From: an uncultured candidatus Porisulfidus sp.
Lineage (GTDB): Bacteria; Pseudomonadota; Gammaproteobacteria; Poriferisulfidales; Poriferisulfidaceae
DNA: 64,000 bases
Direction: 5' to 3'
NCBI GenBank assembly: GCA_965116025.1
Contig: OZ220480.1
Coordinates: 1,888,001 to 1,952,000, forward strand
The notes below the pieces were generated by a model. It did no database searches. It was not told the DNA's origin and saw only the letters and a list, made by a program, of their open reading frames with translations. The position numbers were made by a program, and so were the translations under genes. Positions 48,239-62,119 of the stretch are shown one piece after another (within the stretch, counting starts at the first letter, position 1; each line of letters starts with the position of its first letter).

Positions 48239-49204
48239 TTATTGGCATGATCCGGCTCCGAGCCGATTCGAGGACCACCAGCGAGCGACCGCCTCCATGG
48301 CTTCATCCGACCTCGCGCAGTCAGTTGTGCAGTGTATCACGCCCGGCGCATGCCGCAACCAACTCAATTGCCGCTTCGCCAGTTGCCGGGTCGCCGCCAC
48401 CGCCCGCTCGCGCATCCCCTCCCGGTCGCAATCCCCATCCAAATACCGCCACACTTGCCGATAGCCGACGCAGCGCATGGCCGGGCGATCCAAGTCCAAA
48501 TCCCTCCGCGCGCGCAGCCGGCGCACCTCCTCGACCAGCCCCTCCTCAAGCATGCGATCAAAACGCTCCCCGATCCGCCCATGCAAACGCGCGCGGTCCT
48601 TTGGCCAAAGCGCCAATTGACAATAATCTTCACGCCCGGGCATCGCCGGCGCCCGCGCGGTCCATGCGCTAAGAGGCCGACCACTCGACTCGAACACCTC
48701 CAGCGCGCGGGTAACGCGCTGGCCATCTCCTGGCTGGAGCCGTCGCGCCGTCTCTGGATCGCACTGGGACAGGCGCTCATGCAACGCTGGAGCGCCCCGT
48801 TCCTCCAATTCCTGGCGCAGGCGCCAGCGCACTCCCGCGTCCGCGTCCGGGATGCGCGAAAGTCCTCGCGTCAGGGCGAGAAAGTACAGACGCGCGCCTC
48901 CAACCAGCAGCGGGACGCGCCCGACCGCGTGAATCTCCTCTATGTGTCGACGCGCTTGCCGAGCGTATTCGTAGGCGGAAAACGATTCCGCGGGATCCAG
49001 AATGTCGATCATGCGATGCGGCGCGACGGCCAGAACCTCCGGACTCGGCTTGGCGCTGCCGATATTCATGCCGCGATAGATCATGGCGGAATCCACGCTG
49101 ACGATCTCGAACGGCCAGCGGCGGACCAGTTCCACCGCGCAGTCGGTCTTGCCCGAGGCGGTCGGCCCCATCAAGGCCAGCACCGCGATTCGGCGTTCGC
49201 TCAC
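48239..49204 (-). CDS. miaA: tRNA dimethylallyltransferase
   Basis: [34 protein letters not shown]. Confidence 0.97.
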
Positions 49205-50934
49205 TGCCCTCGCATGAATAGCTTGTCGAGCTGGTCGACGCTCAGTTGCACCCAAGTCGGACGGCCATGGTTGCACTGGCTGGACCGCTCGGTCTCCTCC
49301 ATGTCGCGCAACAGCACGTCCATCTCGTCCAGCGAAAGCTTCCGGCCCGCGCGCACGGCGCCATGGCACGCCATCGAGGAAAGCAACTCATTCTCTCTCT
49401 CTCGCACGCGCCCGCTACGCCCGTGTTCCACGAGATCCGCCACCACGTCTCGCATCAGAGTTGATGGATCGGCCTTTGACAACAGGGCGGGCACGGCGCG
49501 GACCCGCACCTGGGTCGGGCCACTCACGTCCACCTCAATACCTAGATCCCGCAACAGGTCTCCGTATTCCTCCACGCAGGCGACCTCGGACTCGCTCAAA
49601 CTGACGCCTTGCGGAACAAGCAGGGGCTGCATCCGCACCCCTTGCCCGTCGCGCGCCAACTTCAAGCGTTCGTAGGTGATGCGCTCGTGCGCGGCATGCA
49701 TATCGACCAGCACCATCCCCTCGGCGTTCTCCGCCAGAATGTAAATCCCGTGCAATTGCGCCCGAGCGAATCCCAAGGGTGGAACGCCTCCAGAAGCGTT
49801 GGACGACGATACCGCGCCAGCCTTCAGCGAAACGCCATCGGAGCGCTTCCCGACCGGTAGCGAAATGGGCGACTGCCGCGCCTGCGGATTCTCGTTCACC
49901 AAAGTCCGGAACCGCTCCACGTCGTGCCCGACATCACCGGGCCGCACCGCGCCGATCGCCTCGGCCACGCCGCGAGCGAGGATCTGGTGCACCTGGCGGG
50001 ACTCCCGGAAACGGACCTCCATCTTGGTCGGATGAACGTTGGCGTCAACCTCACCGGGCGGGGCTTCCAGATAGATCACGTAGCAAGGATGGCGCTGGCC
50101 GTAGAGCACGTCGGCGTACGCCTGCCGAATCGCGTGCGTCGCGACCTTGTCGCGCACGTAGCGCCCGTTGACGTATAGATATTGCTGGTCCGGCTGGCTA
50201 CGAGAGCAAGTCGGCAGCCCGACCCAGCCGTACGCCCGCATCTCCCCGAGAGCCTCCTCGAAGAACGTGGACTGCTCGGCGAACTCGCTCCCGAGCACGG
50301 CTTCCAGTCGGTCTCGTTCCGTCACCCCGTCGCCGATGCCCGGATAGCGCAACAGGCGGCGCCTGTCGTGACTGGCCTCGAAGTCCACTGTGAGGCGACC
50401 AAGCGCCAGACGACGCAAAACCGTGGCGATGTGCTTCCATTCAGTCGACGGCGCACGCAAAAACTTGCGTCGCGCCGGAGTGTTGTAGAACAAATCGCGG
50501 ACCTCGACCGTGGCGCCGCCGGGATGCGAGCTCGCGCGCGGCTCTTCCTCTGGCGCGGCGCCCTCGACACGCCAGCCATGCTCCGAGCCGCGCGCGAGGG
50601 AAGTCAAGGTCAGGCGCGAGACGGACGCGATGCTCGGAAGCGCCTCGCCACGAAACCCCAAACTCCGCAGGCTCCAAAGATCCTCCACCTCGCTCAGCTT
50701 GGAGGTCGCGTGGCGCGCGAGCGCCAGCGCCATCTCCCCGCGAACGATGCCGTGACCGTCGTCCACCACCGCCAACCGTCGCTGGCCCCCTTCCTCCACC
50801 TCCACCCGGACATGCCGAGCGTCGGCATCCAAACTGTTCTCCACCAGTTCCTTGACCACGGAAGCGGGCCGCTCAATGACTTCCCCCGCCGTGATCTGAT
50901 TGATCAGGTCCGAACTAAGTTTCTTGATGCCCAT
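49201..50934 (-). CDS. mutL: DNA mismatch repair protein MutL (endonuclease-bearing type)
   Basis: GEVIERPASVVKELVEN, GFRGEAL, DMHAAHERITYE, ACH, CNHGRP. Confidence 0.98.
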   Translation of the reverse strand: MGIKKLSSDLINQITAGEVIERPASVVKELVENSLDADARHVRVEVEEGGQRRLAVVDDGHGIVRGEMALALARHATSKLSEVEDLWSLRSLGFRGEALPSIASVSRLTLTSLARGSEHGWRVEGAAPEEEPRASSHPGGATVEVRDLFYNTPARRKFLRAPSTEWKHIATVLRRLALGRLTVDFEASHDRRRLLRYPGIGDGVTERDRLEAVLGSEFAEQSTFFEEALGEMRAYGWVGLPTCSRSQPDQQYLYVNGRYVRDKVATHAIRQAYADVLYGQRHPCYVIYLEAPPGEVDANVHPTKMEVRFRESRQVHQILARGVAEAIGAVRPGDVGHDVERFRTLVNENPQARQSPISLPVGKRSDGVSLKAGAVSSSNASGGVPPLGFARAQLHGIYILAENAEGMVLVDMHAAHERITYERLKLARDGQGVRMQPLLVPQGVSLSESEVACVEEYGDLLRDLGIEVDVSGPTQVRVRAVPALLSKADPSTLMRDVVADLVEHGRSGRVRERENELLSSMACHGAVRAGRKLSLDEMDVLLRDMEETERSSQCNHGRPTWVQLSVDQLDKLFMRGQ

Positions 50935-51030
50935 CCCGCTGGACGCCACGCCTCACCGTACTGATTTTCGCATCATACCAGCAAAATAGGCCGTCAAGGC
51001 TGACGCGCCCTCATTGCCGAACGCAAAAAA

Positions 51031-52875: not shown

Positions 52876-53292
52876 TCATCGCCATGCTCTACAGCTCATA
52901 GTCCCGTATAGGATAATGACACTGTCAATGAAATTCGTTGCGACACCCAAACACGCCTTCAGCCTCTCTTCGTCGTAATCGCGCGGTACGTTGGTCCGAG
53001 CGTCAGCGTATCGCAACCAATGCTCCAGCGGCACTGATAGCTACTGATTCTCATGCGCGATACGAAACACGGGCTTTGAGCTGTTGGGCAGGTCAGCAGA
53101 GCCGAGGCACTCGGCCAGATGGAGCTTCAACGCCTTCCACAAGCAGTCATAGCAGATTTTGAAGCACCGGATGATGGATTCAGCGATTCCCTCGCGATCC
53201 AAGTCGGAGAGCACCGAACTTTCGCGCCGATGGTTAGCGTACTGCTTCTCCAAGCACTTCAGGGCCAACTCAAATTTCCCACAGTCGATCAT
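52876..53292 (-). pseudogene. HEPN (HI0074-like nucleotidyltransferase substrate-binding) pseudogene
   Basis: DREGIAESIIRCF.ICYD.LWK..K..L, PNSSKPVFR; in-frame TAG at 53041-53043, after which the frame continues (W..YADARTNVPRDYD) to TGA at 52876. Confidence 0.7.
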
Positions 53293-53636
53293 AAGAATCG
53301 ACTTCTAAGCGCAACAATATATTCAGCACAAAACCGACATCTTGATGACCCCACCTGTATCCGACTCCTTTCCAAGCCGCACTTCGGGGGGTGTCACGCA
53401 TCCCTTGCCAGAATCGCGCCTCTGCATCACCGCCAAGAAATCGGACTGGTTCAGCGAGAATCATGCTCTGGTCATCCATTCCAGAAACTCAAGATATCGA
53501 GATTCTCGATCACCGAATCCAGCGGGACCGCTCGCTCTACTACCTACGAAACTGCGTGATCGGGCTCTTCGCCTTGTCCTCTATGAGAAACCGCATTACG
53601 ACTCGGACAGCAGTCGGCCAGCGTAGGAACAGCCAT

Positions 53637-54245
53637 TCACGAATTCGTCCGTCTCATAGGCCTGCGTAGATCATACTCGCAGTTGGCACGGTTGCGAAAG
53701 GCGGCCTCAATCAGAAACTTGAGCGCTCCTCCCTGGTTTATTCTTTCCCATGGAGCAACCGAAATTTTGACATCCTGTTCCATAAAATTATCGATGATTC
53801 GGTCAGGCATATACGGATATCGACGCTCGTATTCCGCTCGCTCCTCGACGTGCATCCACTCATCAACATCCGGGTACAGCAGCTCCTTCTCTTCATTCCC
53901 ATGGGGCGCGTGGAAGCGGCCAGGAGATATTCCCGGAAGATTGATAACGACTATCCCCGACTTCTTATTCACCGAACCGTCGTACATGCTCGAGTGAATT
54001 TCCCAATCGACATGCTTTCGGCGTTTAGTCTCTCTGCCGACTAACACTATGGTCACGGTCGAGTCCTTGAGATATTCGTCACGAATAGCGCGGCGTATTC
54101 GCTCGTCGCTCCAATCACTCGGGATGTCGCCAGTGTCGACGGACCGATCTACAAAAACTGAATGCTCTTTTCCAAATTCGACCAGATCTTCCTTGTATTT
54201 CTGATCGTCGCGGTGATGGTAACTAATGAATACCTTATGCATCAT
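53637..54245 (-). CDS. ThsB-like TIR domain protein (DUF1863/MTH538 type)
   Basis: KVFISYHH..D, IRDEYLKDSTVTIVLVG, RKHVDWEI with the catalytic Glu. Confidence 0.88.
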   Translation of the reverse strand: MMHKVFISYHHRDDQKYKEDLVEFGKEHSVFVDRSVDTGDIPSDWSDERIRRAIRDEYLKDSTVTIVLVGRETKRRKHVDWEIHSSMYDGSVNKKSGIVVINLPGISPGRFHAPHGNEEKELLYPDVDEWMHVEERAEYERRYPYMPDRIIDNFMEQDVKISVAPWERINQGGALKFLIEAAFRNRANCEYDLRRPMRRTNS

Positions 54246-55062
54246 GCCCTCCATTAGCAAGAGCGTTGCGTAGCCCCCGTGAAATGAGAGCCACGGCTTC
54301 CTGAATATGAGGAGTGCGGGCCAAAATAGCGTTCTCGTCGCGAGACAATCCGTTGTGCAGGTCGTCTGGCGAATATTTTTGGAAACGATCCCGACCAACC
54401 CATCCATTACGCGAACCGGCCCAGCGCTCGGCGATGCCAACTGTCTCCGCGATATCACGCGCGCACCCTCCGAATCCCCCTATGAGGAACACAGGCTGAC
54501 CTGCTTCAAGAGACAAATATGCCTCCTCGGCGATGCCGGGCATCACCCCTTTGTAGCCCTCGATTCTGCCGCCGAGCATGATTCGCGCCTGAATGTCCTC
54601 GCGCATGGTGGTTCGCATCGATGTAAGTCCTACCGTCCACTCATCTTCATCCGGCTCATGTGGTCGTAACGTCAGCCGTTGCTTTTGCGCGAGACGCGTA
54701 CCATCCAGCGCAAGGAAGACGATATGACTGCAGGGCTCATGTTCAGCAGAGGACGCGACAATCTCGTCCGGCGTCATGCGGATATGCACCGGCCAAGCCA
54801 AATAGTCAGTTACGGAGACTTCCCCACGATGTCGAGGATGATTCTGATAACGCCCCACCAACTCGGCTATAAGCTCCGTGAATCCATGTTGCTGCAGGTC
54901 TCCACCGTAGGCTAGGCTTCTTCCCGACGCGAGTATCTGGAGAGCGATCTCGGCCATCGCGTCATGCAGATGCCGGTCGCTCAACCCCAAGGACCACAAA
55001 TCCGGACTCTCTGAAACCGAGACCCCGACGGTATTCAATCTCTCGATATTTGGTGTGGTCAT
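54235..55062 (-). CDS. Stand-alone SLOG domain protein (LD_cluster2-like)
   Basis: VGVSVSES, LAYGGD, RIMLGG, PGIAEEA, PVFLIGGFGG. Confidence 0.82.
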   Translation of the reverse strand: MTTPNIERLNTVGVSVSESPDLWSLGLSDRHLHDAMAEIALQILASGRSLAYGGDLQQHGFTELIAELVGRYQNHPRHRGEVSVTDYLAWPVHIRMTPDEIVASSAEHEPCSHIVFLALDGTRLAQKQRLTLRPHEPDEDEWTVGLTSMRTTMREDIQARIMLGGRIEGYKGVMPGIAEEAYLSLEAGQPVFLIGGFGGCARDIAETVGIAERWAGSRNGWVGRDRFQKYSPDDLHNGLSRDENAILARTPHIQEAVALISRGLRNALANGGHDA

Positions 55063-56225
55063 GAGCGTTTCTCCAGCCAATCCGCCAACGTCCTCACACG
55101 AACATCCGGCGCAATCTCTCTGAACAGCCGTTCTTCATCCGCGCTCAACAGTGGTTCAGGATAAACGATTGTCGGGGTCGACTCTCCATCGCAAGAAGGC
55201 AATGCCGCCAATGCGATCAACTCCGGGGGCCGGGCCGTAAACACAACCCCCGACGAATCCGCCAAATGGCATCCTACCTGACAGAGCCATAGCCATGTGC
55301 GGAAGACCTCGTCCAAGAGATAGCTCACAACGATGGAGATCTTGTCCATCTGGTCGGGGTCCATGCGTACGACCGGCACATTGCCGAGATAGGCCATTCC
55401 CCTTGGATCGATATCCCGCACACAATCGACCACGACCATCGGCACCAATCGTCGCTTCGCCTCAATAATCTCGCGCCGGCACCACTCGCGCGACGAGTAT
55501 GAAGCGGAATGCACCGCCACGACAGCCCCAGCATCAATCTGATGCAGAAGAACATCCCCGAATGGCAACCCCGGTGGAATGTCGTGGATGTCAAAGAAGC
55601 TATCGAGCGGGCTGTGTTCATAGATCCAGTCGCGAATGCGATTTCCCACCGATTCGCCATCTCCGTCATGTTTCGAGTGGCTAATAAAGACCTGTATCTT
55701 TTCCAAATATCTTTCATACGCCACACTTCCACCCTCGACGCTTTGATGCGCATCTATGCGATGTCGCAACATGCGACAAAATTCGTGGGTCAGTTCCAGC
55801 ATGAGACGCTGAGATCGCCCCATATCAGTTCCATCCCAGCAATTCCAACGCAGAGCTTGTTGCTCAAAATTTGCTTCGACACCCCGGTCATCCATCGTCA
55901 CGGGGAAGAAGCCAGCGGGAATGCCTTTATCGCGCGCATCCCGCGCGATCCCATGCACATATTCAACCCAAGCTGGATCATCAACAAGCGTCGCTTCCGT
56001 CAAAACAACGACAGCGGTGAGATCCGCATCGTTCCAATTGATCGATGAAGGAGTGCGCTCGTCCTGAATCGGCACGCTAAGTCCGAAGACGTTGATACCA
56101 TGCGGCGCGCCAATGGACATGCTGGAATCGCGTCCAAAGCGTTCGTGAAATTGCTTCGCGATTTCACGGCCTCCCGTGTACGAGGGATGCCATATCACGT
56201 ACAACGAGAAGAGTGGGCGCGCCAT
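55059..56225 (-). CDS. TIR domain protein with an N-terminal TIR-like domain and a C-terminal PPEL..YPEP module
   Basis: VFISHSKHDG, FFDIHDIPPG, YSSREWCRREI. Confidence 0.85.
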   Translation of the reverse strand: MARPLFSLYVIWHPSYTGGREIAKQFHERFGRDSSMSIGAPHGINVFGLSVPIQDERTPSSINWNDADLTAVVVLTEATLVDDPAWVEYVHGIARDARDKGIPAGFFPVTMDDRGVEANFEQQALRWNCWDGTDMGRSQRLMLELTHEFCRMLRHRIDAHQSVEGGSVAYERYLEKIQVFISHSKHDGDGESVGNRIRDWIYEHSPLDSFFDIHDIPPGLPFGDVLLHQIDAGAVVAVHSASYSSREWCRREIIEAKRRLVPMVVVDCVRDIDPRGMAYLGNVPVVRMDPDQMDKISIVVSYLLDEVFRTWLWLCQVGCHLADSSGVVFTARPPELIALAALPSCDGESTPTIVYPEPLLSADEERLFREIAPDVRVRTLADWLEKRS

Positions 56226-56591
56226 TGATTCTTTGGTCCGCCGAATCAATGTCTCGACAGATCTCCCGGCAAGCGATGTTTCCCGGCATCAGAGTTAGGA
56301 AGCGAAAAACCATCACCTCCGCTATAGTCTTGGTCGGTCGAGCACAACCACACGAAGCAAATCTCCTTCCACCGTCGATCCATAATCACCACAACGCCTC
56401 ATATTCAGATGCCAAACCGTGCGCCCATTATAAAGTGTCCGCCTATCGACGGTCTCTTTCGACGATATTGAAGAGCAGGGAATTATGTAGGTAACTTGAC
56501 AAGACGGATTGTAATCCACCTACTACTTGACAAGAGATGTAATGAACATATGATATATCGTAACTTGAATATGAAAGTTATGGAGAGAGCG

Positions 56592-57524
56592 ATGTCGAGG
56601 AGAATCGCGAAGACCCTCGGGCTGTTCGACCTGATGAAGATGTATCCGACTGAGACGGACGCCGTTCGATACCTGGAATCCCTCCGATGGGGCGAGAAGC
56701 CGCGTTGCGTCCATTGCGGCGCGACCGACAAGATCACCGCCCAGAAGAAAGCGGGCGATTACTGGTGCGGCTGGTGTCGCCACTACTTCACGGTGCGATC
56801 CGACACCCCGCTGGAGCGATGCAAGATCGACCTGCGCAAGTTCATCTACGCGGCCTATCTGCTGATGACCTCCCGCAAGGGGATCAGTAGCCTGCAGCTG
56901 AGCAAGGAGCTGTCCGTGCAGCAGCGCACCGCCTGGTATATCCTGCATCGTCTGCGCGTGGCCTGCGGCGGCAAGCTGGAGCCCCTGCGCGGGACCGTGG
57001 AGGTGGACGAGGTCTATCTCGGAGGGCGGGAAGCCAACAAGCACGAGAGCCGGAAGGCGCATGGCGGGCATTTCGCCGAGAAGCAGATCGTGCTGGGGAT
57101 GCGCGAGCGAGGCGGGCGCGCGGTCGCCTTGCCGATCGAGCGCGCCGACAAGCCCACCCTGCAAGGGGCCGTCCACCGGCATGTCCAGCCGGGAACCACG
57201 ATCTGCACGGACGAGAACCCCTCCTACCATGGCGTCGCTCGCCGGCATCGCGCAGTGAACCACAGCGCGAAGGAATACGTCAATGGCATGGCGCATACGA
57301 ACGGGATCGAATCGGTCTGGGCGGTGCTCAAGCGCGGCTTCGACGGCGTCTACCACAACTGGTCGAGAAAGCATTGCCGCCAATACGTCAACGAGTTCAT
57401 GTTCCGTCTCAACGAGGGGAACTGCGAGCGCGACACCCAGGACCGCCTGGACGATCTGTTCCGGGCCATGATGGGCAAGACGATCACGTACGAGGATCTC
57501 ACCGCGTCCGGGGAAGGCTGGTAG
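56592..57524 (+). CDS. IS1595-family (ISXO2-like) DDE transposase
   Basis: Zn ribbon CVHC..CGWC, KGISSLQL HTH, VEVDEVYLGG, TDE, HTNGIESVW, YVNEFMFR. Confidence 0.95.
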   Translation: MSRRIAKTLGLFDLMKMYPTETDAVRYLESLRWGEKPRCVHCGATDKITAQKKAGDYWCGWCRHYFTVRSDTPLERCKIDLRKFIYAAYLLMTSRKGISSLQLSKELSVQQRTAWYILHRLRVACGGKLEPLRGTVEVDEVYLGGREANKHESRKAHGGHFAEKQIVLGMRERGGRAVALPIERADKPTLQGAVHRHVQPGTTICTDENPSYHGVARRHRAVNHSAKEYVNGMAHTNGIESVWAVLKRGFDGVYHNWSRKHCRQYVNEFMFRLNEGNCERDTQDRLDDLFRAMMGKTITYEDLTASGEGW

Positions 57525-57533
57525 CGGGAGCCG

Positions 57534-57689
57534 ATGAACCTTCGAGCGTTGGCCCGGGCCATCCGCGCGCTGATCCGAATGCGCTCGGTGCCCTACGTCC
57601 GCCCGCCGGAGCCGACCAGGAAAGACTTGGAGAGAAAGTTCCTGATGCGCGTCGATAGGAAGGGAAAGCCGACCATCAAGGAAGTCTGA
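57534..57689 (+). CDS. 51-aa basic passenger ORF inside the IS
   Basis: GGGAG RBS then MNLRALARAIRALIRMRSVPYVRPPEPTRKDLERKFLMRVDRKGKPTIKEV; fills the gap between transposase and right IR. Confidence 0.5.
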   Translation: MNLRALARAIRALIRMRSVPYVRPPEPTRKDLERKFLMRVDRKGKPTIKEV

Positions 57690-57810
57690 AGCCCGGCTTT
57701 GTCAAGTTACCTACATAATTCCCGAAGAGCACATTAGTTTGGAAATCAGGGTATTATGAGGCGAGCAATTTCATAATCACGTGAGGCTTTAAAGTCCCAC
57801 AGGTGGACAC

Positions 57811-60800
57811 ATGAGCGAGCAAACCCCGATACGTCCTGGACAGATTTTGGTCGGCATCCTGTTTAACCAGCCGATGCGAGTCGAGACCGTGCATGCGAAT
57901 GGAGCTAACTCTTGGAGTGTGGGTCTGGTCGGTACGCATACGGGACAATTTCGTCGCGTTGTCCTTACCGATGATGCCATCAAGAAGATATCCATCATTG
58001 ATGGATCCAACCACTCATACGATGGCGATGGCCACGTTCTTCGGCTCGGCTTGAAAGCTTGCGCGCTCGGGATCGCCCATGAATTTGATCCTTATTTCGG
58101 CCTTTCGATATCCCGAGTGGATCCACTCCCGCATCAACTCGAAGCAGTCTACGAACACATGCTCAAACTGTCTACAGTTCGGTTTCTGCTTGCCGACGAT
58201 GCTGGTGCAGGCAAGACGATTATGGCGGGTCTACTGGTGCGCGAGCTCAGATTACGTGGACTCGCGGAACGCATTCTAATCGTCTGCCCCGCAAACCTAA
58301 CGTTCCAATGGCAACGTGAACTGAGCGAGAAATTCGACGAGAAGTTCCTCGTGCTCAAAGGTGGAGACATCCGTGATCAATTTGGTGTCAACCAGTGGTT
58401 GGAGCAACAGCGTATCATCACTTCGCTCGACCTCGCAAAACGTACCGATATCCTTCCCGGACTACAGCAAGTGCATTGGGATCTCGTCATCGTTGATGAA
58501 GCGCATCGCATGTCTTGGTCGCCACCAGCCAGAAAGACGGCGCGCTATTCGCTCGGCGAGTTGCTACGCGACAGCACCGACCACATCCTTCTACTAACCG
58601 CCACGCCACACAAAGGCGACCCGGAGAATTTTGCGCGGTTCTTGCAGCTCATCGACCGTGACGCTTATGCTGATGTCAAGTCGATTCATGAGGCCATAAA
58701 CCATCGTCGGGCGCCATTCTACCTACGGCGCACCAAAGAGGCGATGTTCTACTTTCCAGAGCGCCAAACCGACGGCGAATGGAAGGCGCGCCCAGTGTTC
58801 ACGAAGCGCATCCCCCGCACAGTCGGATTCATGATTGATGAGGATGAATGGGAACTGTATTTAGAGATCACCCGATTCGTGAAGCGGCAGAGTGCAAATG
58901 CTGCCGCCCAAAGAGACGATCCTCGCGCACGAGCTGTCGGTTTCCTGATGGTGCTCTACCAAAGACGCCTTGCCTCCAGTGTTTTCGCGATGCGGCACTC
59001 GCTTGAGAACCGGGCCAAACGCCTTGAAAAAAGATTGCAGCGCGCTCAGTTTGTGGCAAAGAACGCACCACCAAGCCTTCCCGATCCTGAGGAGATCGAT
59101 GAGATGGAAGATGATGAGCGGGAACGCTTTGAAGAACTGCTTGATGCGGTCACTTTAGCCGATAACGCCGAGCAAGTGCGCGACGAAATTTTGGAACTGA
59201 GACAGTTTGCGGACAGAGCCAAGGCGATCGAAAACTCTGGCAAGGAGGCGAAGCTCACCAAGCTCAAAGACATACTACAGAGTGAAGGCTTCTTCGACCT
59301 TCCCGGTCAACGCTTGCTCCTGTTCACCGAATTTAAGGATACGCTCAACTGCCTTGTAGACCATCTCAAAACTTGGGGATTTACGGTCGGCTATATTCAC
59401 GGCGGCATGAAGCCTGGTTCGCGTGACGAGCCGGGCACTCGGCTTCACGCGGAACAGCAGTTCCGGGAAGGAAAAACCCAAGTATTGGTCGCCACAGAGG
59501 CGGCAGGCGAAGGTATTAATCTGCAGTGTTGCCATATTCTCTTCAACTACGATATCCCATGGAATCCAAACCGGCTTGAACAGCGCATGGGCCGGATCCA
59601 CCGGTACGGGCAAAATCATGACTGCCTAATCTTCAACTTCGTCGCGACCAATACTATCGAAGGGCGTGTCCTCAAACGTCTGATGGACAAGCTTCAGGAA
59701 ATCAGGGACGCGCTGGATGACGACGTGGTATTCAACGTGATTGGTGAAATCCTGCCCGCCACGCAAATCGAACGTGTATTGCGAGACTACTATGCGGGCA
59801 GGCTGGATGAGGCCAATTTGGAAAACCACATGCTGGAGGGCGTAGACGAAGATCGTTTCCGGGCCATTTGCCAGACCGCGCTCGAAGGCCTCGCATCAAA
59901 GAAGCTTAACCTCGAGATGCTCATCGAGCGACGCGCCAAAGCAAGAGAGCAACGCGTCGTACCGGAGAGCATCGCCCGGTTCATGGTAGATTGCGCCAAG
60001 GATGCGTCGCTGGCCCTCAAATCTGTGCCGAAGCTTGCCCATACGTTCGACCCTGGGCGAACACCGCCCGTCCTGAAGAAACACGAACGAGGCGCGGACT
60101 GGAAGCTCCCACAAATCGCGGCGCGCTATCCCCGTTTGTCGACGGACCGTGAAACGGCAGATCAAAACCATCTGGAATGGATCACACCCGGTCACCCTCT
60201 GTTCGAAGCGTTACGCCTCCACGCTCTTGAAACTGCAAAAAACGTCTTTACTCAAGGGGCATGCTTCCACTCTCTGGCCCATGAGGCACCGACGCGACTC
60301 GACGTATACCGGGCGAAAGTCGTAGACGGATTGGGGCATACTGTTCATGAGCGGCTTTTCGCCGTTGAGTTGCGCGAAGACGGCGAACCGCAACGACGAG
60401 AACCCGGACTGCTTAGCGATCTCACCCCCGCTGCTCCACCAGATAATATCCCATCCGTAGCACATCTTCCAGAGGCCACCGATTGGCTTATGGAAACCAT
60501 GTTGGAACCATTCCTTGAAAAGGTTCAGTCGGAACGTTCGGCTGAGATCGAACGTATCACCAAGCATGTGGAACTGTCGCTTACCGAGGTACTGCAGCGG
60601 ATCGACGTAGAGATTGGCCACGCCGCCGAAGAGGCGAAAAAAGGAAGTGCCGGAGCCAAGGGTCGTCTCACCCAAGCAGAAGCACGTCACGGCGAAGTAC
60701 TGGAGCGGCGCAACCGCCGCAACGAGGAGCTTGAACGGGAGCAAAACGTAACGCTGCAGGAAGTCGAAAGACTAACAAGTTTGCTGATCCTACCTCACCC

Positions 60801-61215
60801 CGAGCGCAGCGCTCCCGAAGTCAAGCGATTGCGGCCAAACCCCGAAACTGAGATGAAGGCGATGCGCGTCGTCATGGACCATGAAAACGCGCGAGGATGC
60901 CAAGTCTACGATGTGCACGAGAAAAATCTTGGTTACGACGTGACGAGCCTCGACCTGCAGTCTGGCGAGCTACGCCTGATCGAGGTGAAAGGGCTTGCCG
61001 CAACAACCGGCAATATCCTGCTTACTCCGAACGAGTTTCGAGTGGCCGAGGACCGCCGAGATTGCTACTGGCTCTATATCGTGACCGGTTGCGCGAGTGC
61101 CCTGAAGCTCAAACTTATCAAGAACCCTGCCCGTCTTCAATGGCGCGACATAACTAAGGTGCAACACTACTGGCTTGCAGTCGACACGTTGCATGCTACT
61201 GGAAGTGACCAGTGA
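57811..61215 (+). CDS. SNF2-family helicase/ATPase with a C-terminal DUF3883 (NOV-C, PD-(D/E)XK) domain
   Basis: LLADDAGAGKT, DEAH, LTATPH, EGINLQ, QRMGRIHR; C-terminal GYDVTS..RLIEVKG..LTPNE. Confidence 0.93.
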   Translation: MSEQTPIRPGQILVGILFNQPMRVETVHANGANSWSVGLVGTHTGQFRRVVLTDDAIKKISIIDGSNHSYDGDGHVLRLGLKACALGIAHEFDPYFGLSISRVDPLPHQLEAVYEHMLKLSTVRFLLADDAGAGKTIMAGLLVRELRLRGLAERILIVCPANLTFQWQRELSEKFDEKFLVLKGGDIRDQFGVNQWLEQQRIITSLDLAKRTDILPGLQQVHWDLVIVDEAHRMSWSPPARKTARYSLGELLRDSTDHILLLTATPHKGDPENFARFLQLIDRDAYADVKSIHEAINHRRAPFYLRRTKEAMFYFPERQTDGEWKARPVFTKRIPRTVGFMIDEDEWELYLEITRFVKRQSANAAAQRDDPRARAVGFLMVLYQRRLASSVFAMRHSLENRAKRLEKRLQRAQFVAKNAPPSLPDPEEIDEMEDDERERFEELLDAVTLADNAEQVRDEILELRQFADRAKAIENSGKEAKLTKLKDILQSEGFFDLPGQRLLLFTEFKDTLNCLVDHLKTWGFTVGYIHGGMKPGSRDEPGTRLHAEQQFREGKTQVLVATEAAGEGINLQCCHILFNYDIPWNPNRLEQRMGRIHRYGQNHDCLIFNFVATNTIEGRVLKRLMDKLQEIRDALDDDVVFNVIGEILPATQIERVLRDYYAGRLDEANLENHMLEGVDEDRFRAICQTALEGLASKKLNLEMLIERRAKAREQRVVPESIARFMVDCAKDASLALKSVPKLAHTFDPGRTPPVLKKHERGADWKLPQIAARYPRLSTDRETADQNHLEWITPGHPLFEALRLHALETAKNVFTQGACFHSLAHEAPTRLDVYRAKVVDGLGHTVHERLFAVELREDGEPQRREPGLLSDLTPAAPPDNIPSVAHLPEATDWLMETMLEPFLEKVQSERSAEIERITKHVELSLTEVLQRIDVEIGHAAEEAKKGSAGAKGRLTQAEARHGEVLERRNRRNEELEREQNVTLQEVERLTSLLILPHPERSAPEVKRLRPNPETEMKAMRVVMDHENARGCQVYDVHEKNLGYDVTSLDLQSGELRLIEVKGLAATTGNILLTPNEFRVAEDRRDCYWLYIVTGCASALKLKLIKNPARLQWRDITKVQHYWLAVDTLHATGSDQ

Positions 61216-61598
61216 CTCAAAAGATTAAACATCTGGAACTCATTCAATGCGTGATCAATCGTCTTGCCGCCAACTCGTTCCGCATCAAAGGATGGGCCGT
61301 CATCCTTGTTTCGGCACTTCTCGTTCTGCTCGTCCGGGAAGGCCGGACCGATCTCGCCTGGATCGGTCTCGTCCCGGTATTCGTCTTCTGGGGGCTCGAC
61401 GGCTACTTCTTGTGGCAGGAGAGATCATTCCGTAGCCTTTATGACCATGTCCGTGTGTTACAAGACGACCATGTAGATTTCTCTATGGACACATCGGCGT
61501 TTCGCCAATTCTGGCTCAATACGGTATTTTCAGTCACCCTATGGCCCTTTTACGTTGCATTGGCCATTTCGATCTCAGCCGCTCTCTTGCTCAAATAA
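61212..61598 (+). CDS. Small 3-TM membrane protein of the type found beside ThsB-like TIR genes
   Basis: HLELIQ.VINRLAANSF.IKGW, WGLDGYFL.QER.FR.LY; GTGA overlap with the helicase stop. Confidence 0.75.
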   Translation: MTQKIKHLELIQCVINRLAANSFRIKGWAVILVSALLVLLVREGRTDLAWIGLVPVFVFWGLDGYFLWQERSFRSLYDHVRVLQDDHVDFSMDTSAFRQFWLNTVFSVTLWPFYVALAISISAALLLK

Positions 61599-61621
61599 TC
61601 AATTACATGGAGACACCTAAG

Positions 61622-62119
61622 ATGAAGCGAAAAGTGTTTTACAGTTTTCACTACGAAAAAGATAGTTGGCGTGCAGCTATGGTGCGTAACATCGGAGCTA
61701 TAGACGGAAATGCGCCAGCCACCGACAACGATTGGGAATCAGTAAAGAAAGGAGGAGATTGGGCGATCAAGAGATGGATCGCAAAACAGATGGAAGGCCG
61801 AACATGCTGCGTCGTCCTAGTGGGGACACATACCGCCAATCGCAAGTGGATCAATCACGAAATCATCAAATCGTGGAACAAAGGCATGGGGCTGGTTGGA
61901 ATACATATTCACGGTTTGAAGGACTGTGACGGGTGCGCATCATCAAGAGGGAGTAATCCATTTGACTTTATCACTTACAGAGATCAGTGCCGAACTTTGT
62001 CGTCCACCGCGAAGTGCTACGACCCACCAGGCAGGAATAGCCGCGAACGCTATGACTGGATCGCTATGCACATATCAAACGCAGTTGAGGAGGCCATTCG
62101 GATTCGTAATGCATGGTAA
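61622..62119 (+). CDS. ThsB-like TIR domain protein (DUF1863 type)
   Basis: KRKVFYSFHY..D.WR...VRN, IKRWI..QM, VVLVG, RKWINHEI with the catalytic Glu. Confidence 0.9.
   Translation: MKRKVFYSFHYEKDSWRAAMVRNIGAIDGNAPATDNDWESVKKGGDWAIKRWIAKQMEGRTCCVVLVGTHTANRKWINHEIIKSWNKGMGLVGIHIHGLKDCDGCASSRGSNPFDFITYRDQCRTLSSTAKCYDPPGRNSRERYDWIAMHISNAVEEAIRIRNAW

Follow-up and report, generated by a model that had tools for sequence, protein, structure and literature searches.

A Thoeris-like TIR-SLOG operon with a natively separate SLOG protein and exchangeable TIR partners in an uncultured candidatus Porisulfidus genome

Introduction

How might a bacterial TIR signalling system operate when its presumed messenger receptor and its presumed output enzyme are two separate polypeptides, and when neither SIR2 nor Macro, the effector domains of Thoeris types I and II, is present? 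The question is raised by an operon of three genes, here called g1, g2 and g3, that lies in a stretch of 64,000 nucleotides (nt) from an uncultured candidatus Porisulfidus species (GenBank assembly GCA_965116025.1, contig OZ220480.1, positions 1,888,001 to 1,952,000 of the forward strand); the whole of this stretch is referred to as the window, and coordinates are counted from its first letter. The gene g1 encodes a large TIR protein, g2 a stand-alone SLOG protein and g3 a small TIR protein of the ThsB type. A first-pass annotation of the window, made from the sequence alone, described these genes as a Thoeris-like operon in which one TIR might signal through the SLOG protein to the other. Here we examine the structure of the operon, the conservation and variation of its genes across related loci, its relation to the known Thoeris types, and the readings of its function that these comparisons favour.

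Systems that combine the same two domains have been predicted as conflict systems by Burroughs, Aravind et al., and in papers that refer to this work SLOG domains are described as predicted to sense or process NAD-derived molecules in an antiviral role (PMC9503650, PMC7824862). Our literature search found no paper mentioning PF18163 or LD_cluster2, the Pfam family of g2, and in the accessible text of the papers on TIR-SLOG systems none was found that characterises such a system. The architecture of the window may already be among the 29 putative Thoeris types listed in the Yirmiya preprint.

Results

Three intact and overlapping genes

Taken together, the list of open reading frames (ORFs) and direct reading of the sequence give g1, g2 and g3 as three intact ORFs on the minus strand between 53637 and 56225 (Table 1), each full length when compared with its homologues. 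The stop codon of g1 and the start codon of g2 share the tetranucleotide ATGA (55062-55059), the start of g3 lies inside the end of g2 with an overlap of 11 nt (54245-54235), and GGAGGG is found immediately 5' of the ATG ATG of g3; the gene coordinates and both overlaps had been given correctly by the first-pass annotation. In the database copy of g1 (P0001; 353 amino acids, aa) the protein starts at M36 and is without 35 residues (window 56120-56225), among them the conserved P4, Y9 and W12-H13-P14. Because conservation in the alignment of g1 homologues reaches residue 4, the ATG at 56225 is to be preferred as start codon.

No SIR2 or Macro domain is matched in the three proteins by Pfam, nor is a Macro domain matched in the scanned neighbours at E<=0.01, and SIR2_2 has no match in the whole genome, a single contig of 2.02 Mb that is 99.4% complete. 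The reported absence of both classical effector domains therefore holds for the operon and, in the case of SIR2_2, for the genome.

The large TIR gene and the SLOG gene form a conserved pair

The linkage of g1 and g2 was surveyed in 91 related loci, of which reference genomes supplied 7, the phylum sample 4 and metagenomes 80; these were collapsed to 73 non-redundant loci. In 64 of the 65 non-redundant loci with at least 400 nt of upstream sequence, g1 lies directly upstream of g2, L082 being the exception. Sixty-nine g1/g2 junctions were read: 57 have a 4-nt overlap (ATGA or GTGA), 5 a 1-nt overlap, 5 a gap of 2-9 nt, and 2 an in-frame fusion (L005 and L017), these counts being biased to short distances by a script that chose the start codon closest to the g1 stop. 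The two genes are split in nearly all of these loci, and where they are fused their order is unchanged. That the split is a recent nonsense or frameshift lesion is excluded by these 69 junctions; by overlap, adjacency and the survey of fusions, the SLOG protein reads as a natively separate polypeptide, as had been supposed. One related locus, L007, is decayed, with stop codons.

Further evidence for the pairing comes from the longer relatives of g2: by BLAST, 26 out of 31 have a g2-like part that comes after a g1-like one, as in the order of the genes. Most of these fusions measure 546-776 aa; three of 1211-1789 aa (P0267, P0268 and P0270) add a CHAT protease domain, and in P0390 patatin is added to the TIR-SLOG pair. 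The other five comprise two SLOG-patatin proteins, one SLOG protein with EF-G-like domains, one AAA-SLOG protein and one odd g2/g3 chimera. The g1-g2 fusions are classic 'Rosetta stone' evidence of joint action. Because the 4-nt overlap is conserved, the adjacency is near-constant, and natural fusions run from g1 to g2, a connection of the SLOG protein to the large TIR protein that is both functional and physical is likely.

Two sets of loci are arranged differently. In L076 (3802-10764) a stand-alone g1 is followed by a 1125-aa fusion of SLOG cluster 2 to patatin and then by a WD40 protein with a weak TIR_2 match, the 4-nt overlap of the g1 and SLOG genes being retained. In a subgroup of g2 (L080, L082 and L083-L085; 46-47% identical) there is no g1 upstream in the available sequence (941 nt in L082 and 1035 nt in L084, which belongs to the L080 group and is redundant within it). 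Downstream, the L080 group has a convergent ThsB-like gene, while the 156 nt available downstream in L082 are too little to show one; this subgroup may represent a two-gene form made of SLOG and TIR.

A SLOG domain that recurs on unrelated proteins

Over positions 6-205 of the 264 in the model, g2 matches Pfam LD_cluster2 (PF18163) at 230.7 bits against a cut-off of 25.3, and is accordingly a member of this family, whose source is said to be Burroughs and Aravind, Nucleic Acids Research (NAR) 2015. Its relatives number 1571 protein clusters at 90% identity, the best 120 of which are 68-100% identical and 269-292 aa long. The distribution of PF18163 is patchy (5 of the 401 genomes of the phylum sample), and the relatives of g1 and g2 span several phyla. 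No solved relative of g2 was found by sequence, the best match, an actinin chain at E 0.56, being meaningless. Because g2 is recognised neither by the models of PADLOC 2.0 nor, at E<=0.01, by those of NCBIfam, current annotation probably misses the family.

The conserved residues of the domain were compared in 24 SLOG-cluster-2 domains that stand alone or are fused to TIR, patatin, CHAT, AAA or EF-G domains. The GGFGG motif retains its glycines (G195, G196, G198 and G199) in 22-24 of the 24, and YGGD (52-55), R150, G164-G165 and PGxxEE (175-180) are likewise conserved. The recurrence of the same motifs in all 24 contexts suggests one shared biochemical role, most simply ligand binding. Fusion of LD_cluster2 to domains as unrelated as patatin, CHAT, AAA and EF-G-like domains is a pattern that suggests, at the level of domain architecture, that this SLOG domain behaves like a transferable sensor.

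Both TIR domains retain a putative catalytic glutamate

Pfam TIR_2 matches g1 at 38.9 bits (cut-off 28) over residues 187-282 of its 396-aa ORF. Relatives of g1 form 1269 protein clusters at 90% identity; among the best 120, identities range over 52-100% and most lengths over 384-400 aa. An AlphaFold2 model of the protein has a predicted local distance difference test score (pLDDT) of 82.7 and a predicted template-modelling score (pTM) of 0.86. A Foldseek search with the whole model returned generic two-domain Rossmann-like matches only (template-modelling scores of 0.2-0.3). When residues 175-310 of the predicted model were aligned by VIA-align, the TIR domains of MAL (Z 14.0; root-mean-square deviation, rmsd, 2.8 with 132 residues aligned), SARM1 (Z 13.8) and MyD88 (Z 13.7) were matched, with rmsd values of 2.5-2.9 over 121-132 residues. 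Within this region W248, C249 and E252 of the WCRRE motif are invariant in all 66 aligned homologues. The profile of the g1 family matches the Roq1 TIR (E 9e-4), and its segment 'sreWCrrE' aligns with 'SSTWCLEE' of Roq1, so that E252 stands opposite the second E of WCLEE, which we take to be the site of the plant TIR catalytic glutamate. The region thus has both a TIR fold and a conserved glutamate after strand C.

The small protein g3 matches Pfam ThsB_TIR at 75.3 bits (cut-off 21.2) and several ThsB models of PADLOC, with no match in NCBIfam. D80, W81 and E82 of its VDWE motif are invariant in all 31 sequences compared. A search with the single sequence against solved structures gave nothing at E<=0.01; the profile search alone found ThsB (6lhy and 9b7d, E 2.5e-8), in whose VRYEI motif the Glu is aligned to E82. 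Both motifs named by the first-pass annotation are therefore present with their key residues invariant, and its three domain calls (TIR, stand-alone SLOG and ThsB-like TIR) are confirmed by Pfam. PADLOC gave a more mixed picture: g3 was called as ThsB, g1 was matched weakly and g2 went unrecognised.

TIR partners vary around a constant core

ThsB-like genes are found in 38 of the 73 non-redundant loci, more often immediately 5' of g1 than, as in the window, 3' of g2, and the other TIR partners in these loci are pentapeptide-repeat-TIR proteins (7), TIR-WD40 proteins (6) and small TIR_2 proteins (3). Flanks of 2 kb or more on each side are available in 32 loci, and in 29 of these two TIR hidden Markov models detect an extra TIR gene at most 3.5 kb away. 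In two of the remaining three, L042 and L100, the cluster label and a Pfam scan of the cluster representative identify a TIR gene; L076 shows a weak match only (TIR_2, E 0.0095, in the WD40 protein). The third TIR partner is swappable around a constant g1-g2 core and bears repeats of the sensor type. In classical Thoeris it is the ThsB sensors that vary around a constant effector, an arrangement that is mirrored here by the core and its swappable, repeat-bearing TIR proteins.

A recurrent block upstream of g1-g2 (L034, L077, L090, L094, L096 and others) consists of a small ThsB-like TIR protein (~157 aa), Nmad2, MazG_C, a 225-aa protein and sometimes HMUDK_hel; among the 73 loci, Nmad2 is present in 13, MazG_C in 11 and HMUDK_hel in 5. 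In its product names the block resembles the validated five-gene DS-4/NTTI system of DefensePredictor (supplement of PMC13092281), and it may feed signals to the TIR-SLOG pair. Outside the window, the genome contains another TIR_2 protein (G000:C1:988565-988975, L101; 85.6 bits, in a 383-aa open frame).

The N-terminal domain of the large TIR protein

The N-terminal part of g1 had been described as a further TIR domain, which would make g1 a tandem TIR protein. Modelled alone (pLDDT 85.9), it forms a flavodoxin-like beta-alpha sandwich, for which Foldseek finds nothing at E<=0.001. VIA-align places it near the wing of the decarboxylase Adc (Z 10.2), the Cat1 TIR (9.9), the TIR domains of TIR-STING, RPS4 and TIRAP (9.6) and receiver (REC) domains (9.6-9.3); as neighbours of this predicted flavodoxin-like fold, TIR and receiver domains are tied. 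Among language-model neighbours those with a name are TIR families (0.87-0.91), which is a lead only. Comparison by hhalign of this domain with the TIR of the same protein gave a probability of 0.6%, i.e. no sequence-level likeness, and no signal of internal duplication was seen either between these two domains or between the C-terminal region and both of them. Of the tandem arrangement, then, what stands is a fold with TIR domains among its tied neighbours (Z 9-10), and what does not stand is a similarity to TIR in sequence; a second TIR domain is possible and not established. The conserved polar residues of the domain are W12-H13-P14 after strand 1, D83, W86 and Q123-A124-x-R126-W127 (QALRW).

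This N-terminal domain defines a family of 738 representatives. Sixteen members, being longer or atypically placed ones, were scanned with Pfam, and in all 15 of them that have a TIR_2 match the domain lies directly N-terminal to it. The architectures, in which Ndom stands for the N-terminal domain, include Metallophos-Ndom-TIR, cNMP_binding-Ndom-TIR, Patatin-Ndom-TIR-SLOG and Ndom-TIR-SLOG. Among P0350, P0366, P0418 and P0419, the module made of this domain and the TIR is found behind a cyclic-nucleotide-binding domain (P0350, 558 aa) or a calcineurin-like phosphoesterase (775-786 aa). Its position behind the nucleotide sensor cNMP_binding in P0350 is consistent with an output module.

Relation to known Thoeris types and other TIR systems

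As in Thoeris generally, the window contains a ThsB-type TIR with a predicted catalytic glutamate (g3) and a predicted messenger-binding partner (g2), which here lies between two TIR genes. With type I Thoeris (ThsB and ThsA, the latter a SIR2-SLOG protein) it shares a ThsB-type TIR whose Glu aligns with that of solved ThsB, a SLOG-superfamily domain as the presumed messenger receptor and an NAD-consuming domain as the presumed output. The differences are that the genome has no SIR2 and the window no ThsA in which SIR2 is fused to SLOG, that the presumed output is a TIR, that the SLOG domain belongs to LD_cluster2 and is not of the ThsA type, and that receptor and output are two polypeptides. 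For the effector of type II Thoeris, a Macro-domain protein with transmembrane helices, no Macro match was found in g1, g2, g3 or the scanned neighbours at E<=0.01.

Type III Thoeris, reportedly described by van den Berg et al. in Cell Host Microbe in 2024, offers a parallel in layout. According to the accessible text of the sources on it, this type comprises several TIR proteins and a SLOG-containing effector (ThcA with ThcB1-4; bioRxiv 10.64898/2025.12.03.692087, 10.64898/2026.01.22.701046, PMC13276650). Its proteins are represented by the NCBIfam models NF058525 for ThcA (cut-off 110 bits; this model equals Pfam LD_cluster3) and NF058526 for ThcB4 (cut-off 220 bits), of which the latter matches 7 of the 401 genomes of the phylum sample. 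In type III loci a ThcB4 of 380-430 aa (N-terminal domain, TIR_2 and C-terminal region) is followed by an abutting or overlapping ThcA of 188-217 aa with small ThsB-type TIR genes near, and ThcB4 and ThcA are adjacent in all 6 distinct loci examined (L016 duplicates L010). The window has this layout too, with a large TIR gene (~380-390 aa) adjoining a stand-alone SLOG gene, and with small TIR genes; SIR2 and Macro are missing from both systems; and remote homology links g1 to ThcB4, extending from the final strand of the N-terminal domain ('GLP..FPV') through the TIR (hhalign 95.7%, E 9.8e-9, 148 columns).

The proteins themselves nevertheless differ. Against the ThcB4 cut-off of 220 bits g1 reaches 36.8 bits, in the TIR core only, and the C-terminal parts of g1 and ThcB4 are not alignable; g2 is an LD_cluster2 protein of 275 aa, whereas ThcA (188 aa) belongs to LD_cluster3, a true ThcA scoring 245 bits, and hhalign relates the two at 12.8% only. 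A NucS nuclease domain is proposed for type III and none is seen in the window system, and of the two it is type III that has been tested with phage. Because both NCBIfam cut-offs are missed and the SLOG clade differs, the window system is not a member of type III; these comparisons make it a parallel version of the type III layout, built with another SLOG clade. The novelty claimed for the operon is consequently lower than had been assumed, since type III already has the split large-TIR/SLOG layout, although the proteins of the window fall outside the ThcA and ThcB4 families. In one type III locus (L015, 6696-8312) a 538-aa LD_cluster2-patatin protein, which also matches a CBASS lipase model at 219.9 bits, is encoded directly upstream of ThcB4-ThcA, and is therefore a further tie of LD_cluster2 to TIR signalling.

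TIR-SAVED, TIR-STING and the CRISPR-associated CARF-TIR protein Cat1 resemble the window system in their proposed logic, in which a nucleotide-binding sensor drives the assembly of a TIR NADase, and both domains of g1 have TIR-STING and Cat1 among their neighbours in structure. The difference is that the sensor here is a SLOG domain, usually a separate protein, and that its presumed ligand is made by a TIR and not by a cyclase.

Genomic setting

The operon sits in a stretch of low guanine-cytosine (GC) content, 0.50-0.58 against ~0.64 to the left, that extends from right after mutL to the end of the window (Table 1). This stretch is a defence island, and the initial reading of the operon as a Thoeris-like TIR/SLOG system is supported. 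The second ThsB-type TIR gene of the window could be part of a variant of Hma or a further signal maker for g1-g2.

Table 1. Coordinates of the operon, its domains and motifs, and the neighbouring features in the window
Feature	Position	Strand	Remarks
mutL	49201-50949		Left edge of the low-GC stretch
AlbA_2/HATPase_c_4 (Schlafen/AlbA_2) protein, 590 aa	51031-52803	-	Weak PADLOC matches to pAgo-associated models
Remnant (83 aa, sub-threshold) of a nucleotidyltransferase-substrate-binding (HEPN-like) protein	53041-53292	-	
g3, ThsB-type TIR protein	53637..54245	-	202 aa
Codon of E82 (VDWEI) of g3	54000..54002	-	Putative catalytic glutamate, by invariance and ThsB alignment
g2, stand-alone SLOG protein (Pfam LD_cluster2, PF18163)	54235..55062	-	275 aa
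GGFGG glycine-rich SLOG motif of g2	54466..54480	-	aa 195-199
g1, large TIR protein	55059..56225	-	388 aa from ATG; N-terminal flavodoxin-like domain, central TIR and short C-terminal alpha/beta region
TIR domain of g1	55296..55703	-	About aa 175-310, by VIA-align structural matches and profile match to Roq1 TIR
Codon of E252 (WCRRE) of g1	55470..55472	-	Putative catalytic glutamate of the TIR, by invariance and Roq1 alignment
N-terminal domain of g1	55716..56225	-	About aa 1-170; predicted flavodoxin-like alpha/beta fold without Pfam match
IS1595-family insertion sequence	56478..57723	+	Perfect 25-nt terminal inverted repeats and transposase domains; between the operon and the divergent hmaA
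HmaA-type SNF2 helicase	57811-61215		593 bits
Second ThsB-type TIR gene	61541..62119	+	Between hmaA and hmaB; PADLOC ThsB1 217.9 bits, PDC-M50B 207.6 bits; Pfam ThsB_TIR 95.8 bits
HmaB-type methylase	62147 to window end		

The intact IS1595-family insertion sequence (IS), found 253 nt 5' of the g1 start and outside the coding region, does not belong to the system; in run X1 it has about double the contig depth of its flanks. In a related strain, a contig that spans 53398-56469 joins straight to 57724, leaving an empty IS site, so that the insertion is recent and strain-specific. Over these 3072 nt the related strain shows 101 differences from the window and 4 small gaps, one of which is an in-frame loss of 3 nt inside g3, and the operon is otherwise kept; the same strain has a replaced segment at 52932-53055. 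A simple scan for sigma-70-like promoters found none upstream of g1.

Discussion

We consider it somewhat short of an even chance (a probability of about 0.48) that g1, g2 and g3 form a Thoeris-like anti-phage system in which the small TIR would signal, the SLOG protein would receive and the TIR of g1 would be the NADase output. The ThsB-type TIR g3, or other small TIR proteins nearby (perhaps the one encoded at 61541-62119), would detect infection and convert NAD+ to a messenger derived from ADP-ribose, for which the stand-alone g2 would be the receptor. The SLOG protein would work as a unit with g1, either bound to it or made in equal amounts, and binding of the ligand would switch on the g1 TIR, with oligomerisation as the most likely means by analogy with ThsA, TIR-SAVED, TIR-STING and Cat1; once active, this TIR would deplete NAD+, and the infected cell would be halted. 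While the roles of signal maker, signal reader and NADase output, and the part in phage defence, are ones that we infer, the idea of a TIR-to-SLOG-to-TIR relay put forward by the first-pass annotation is partly supported, and the support that it draws from gene comparison is real.

Several points weigh against this account of the operon. In L076 the SLOG domain has its own patatin effector and g1 is still present upstream, and fusions of the forms Patatin-Ndom-TIR-SLOG and Ndom-TIR-SLOG-CHAT exist; because of these, killing need not fall to the g1 TIR, which could instead make or process the signal. A PADLOC model of ThsB with 396 positions and its TIR at 139-221 is weakly matched by g1 (27.4 bits), and on account of this model, long TIR proteins built like g1 can be sensors. 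The insertion sequence may affect the promoter or the expression of g1 in this strain, and whatever function is assigned to an LD_cluster2 system is drawn from comparison. For type III Thoeris the Sorek-lab preprint terms the SLOG protein the effector; another preprint reports that type III has no abortive-infection phenotype and proposes a NucS nuclease effector, which fits a simple model of NAD depletion poorly.

A number of these points would be accommodated if g2 were itself the effector, either a signal-activated LOG-like N-glycosidase or a binder that depletes or blocks a nucleotide, with g1 and g3 as the long and the short ThsB-type signal makers. Such roles would match the present annotation of type III Thoeris in the accessible sources (several TIRs and a SLOG-containing effector), the remote homology of g1 to ThcB4, the build that g1 shares with the PADLOC ThsB model and the retention of g1 where the SLOG domain carries its own patatin. 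They would also agree with the PGxxEE and GGFGG..E motifs of g2, which presumably resemble the active-site motifs of LOG-type enzymes. We nevertheless regard an effector role for g2 as unlikely: a signal maker and an effector that are translationally coupled 1:1, or fused, would be unusual, whereas the fusion of sensor to output is a common pattern; the presence of LD_cluster2, with its motifs unchanged, on effectors as unrelated as patatin and CHAT is better explained by a sensor; and the module of N-terminal domain and TIR is also found behind a cNMP-binding sensor. More doubtful is the view that g1 and g2 are a two-step signal factory or converter, in which the TIR would cleave NAD+ and the SLOG protein would remodel the product, or else a feed-forward amplifier of the g3 signal, the true effector being encoded elsewhere or fused in some lineages only. 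A separate effector is indeed added to TIR-SLOG in the CHAT and patatin fusions described above and, as a SLOG::patatin protein beside g1, in L076. No further conserved effector gene, however, accompanies g1, g2 and the TIR genes in the window and in most loci, where the recurrent neighbours are other TIRs, the DS-4-like nucleotide-modification block and unrelated restriction genes; and the compact three-gene form, by far the commonest, must be self-sufficient if it is functional.

An extension of the proposed relay, which we hold to be improbable, is that g1 and g2 make up a universal two-polypeptide receiver for varied phage-sensing TIRs (ThsB, pentapeptide-TIR, TIR-WD40 and the DS-4-like TIR) and that the g1 TIR makes more messenger. 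The chain from TIR to SLOG to TIR would then be a feed-forward amplifier giving an all-or-none switch, a logic that, if true, is not yet described for bacterial TIR signalling. It seems most improbable that the locus is not a working defence in this strain at all, being silenced or decaying after the IS1595 insertion, or that it has a non-antiviral role such as NAD or nucleotide housekeeping. An insertion sequence with perfect 25-nt ends so close upstream of g1 and missing from the related strain, the lack of a sigma-70-like promoter in the simple scan and the clear decay of L007 would suit the former; on the other side, the three ORFs are intact and full length with the insertion outside them, and a patchy distribution, low GC content and defence-gene neighbours favour a mobile defence role.

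The proposed relay apart, the TIR-SLOG operon is a real and conserved feature, widespread though patchy in distribution, and it could shed light on type III Thoeris, which shares its layout and is still uncharacterised. If the proposed mechanism is true, the operon would represent a natural split effector, with a SLOG sensor and a TIR output for which fused forms are at hand for comparison. It would thereby lend itself to studying how a partner enzyme is activated in trans by a SLOG receptor, and would show whether the product of one TIR can switch on another TIR.

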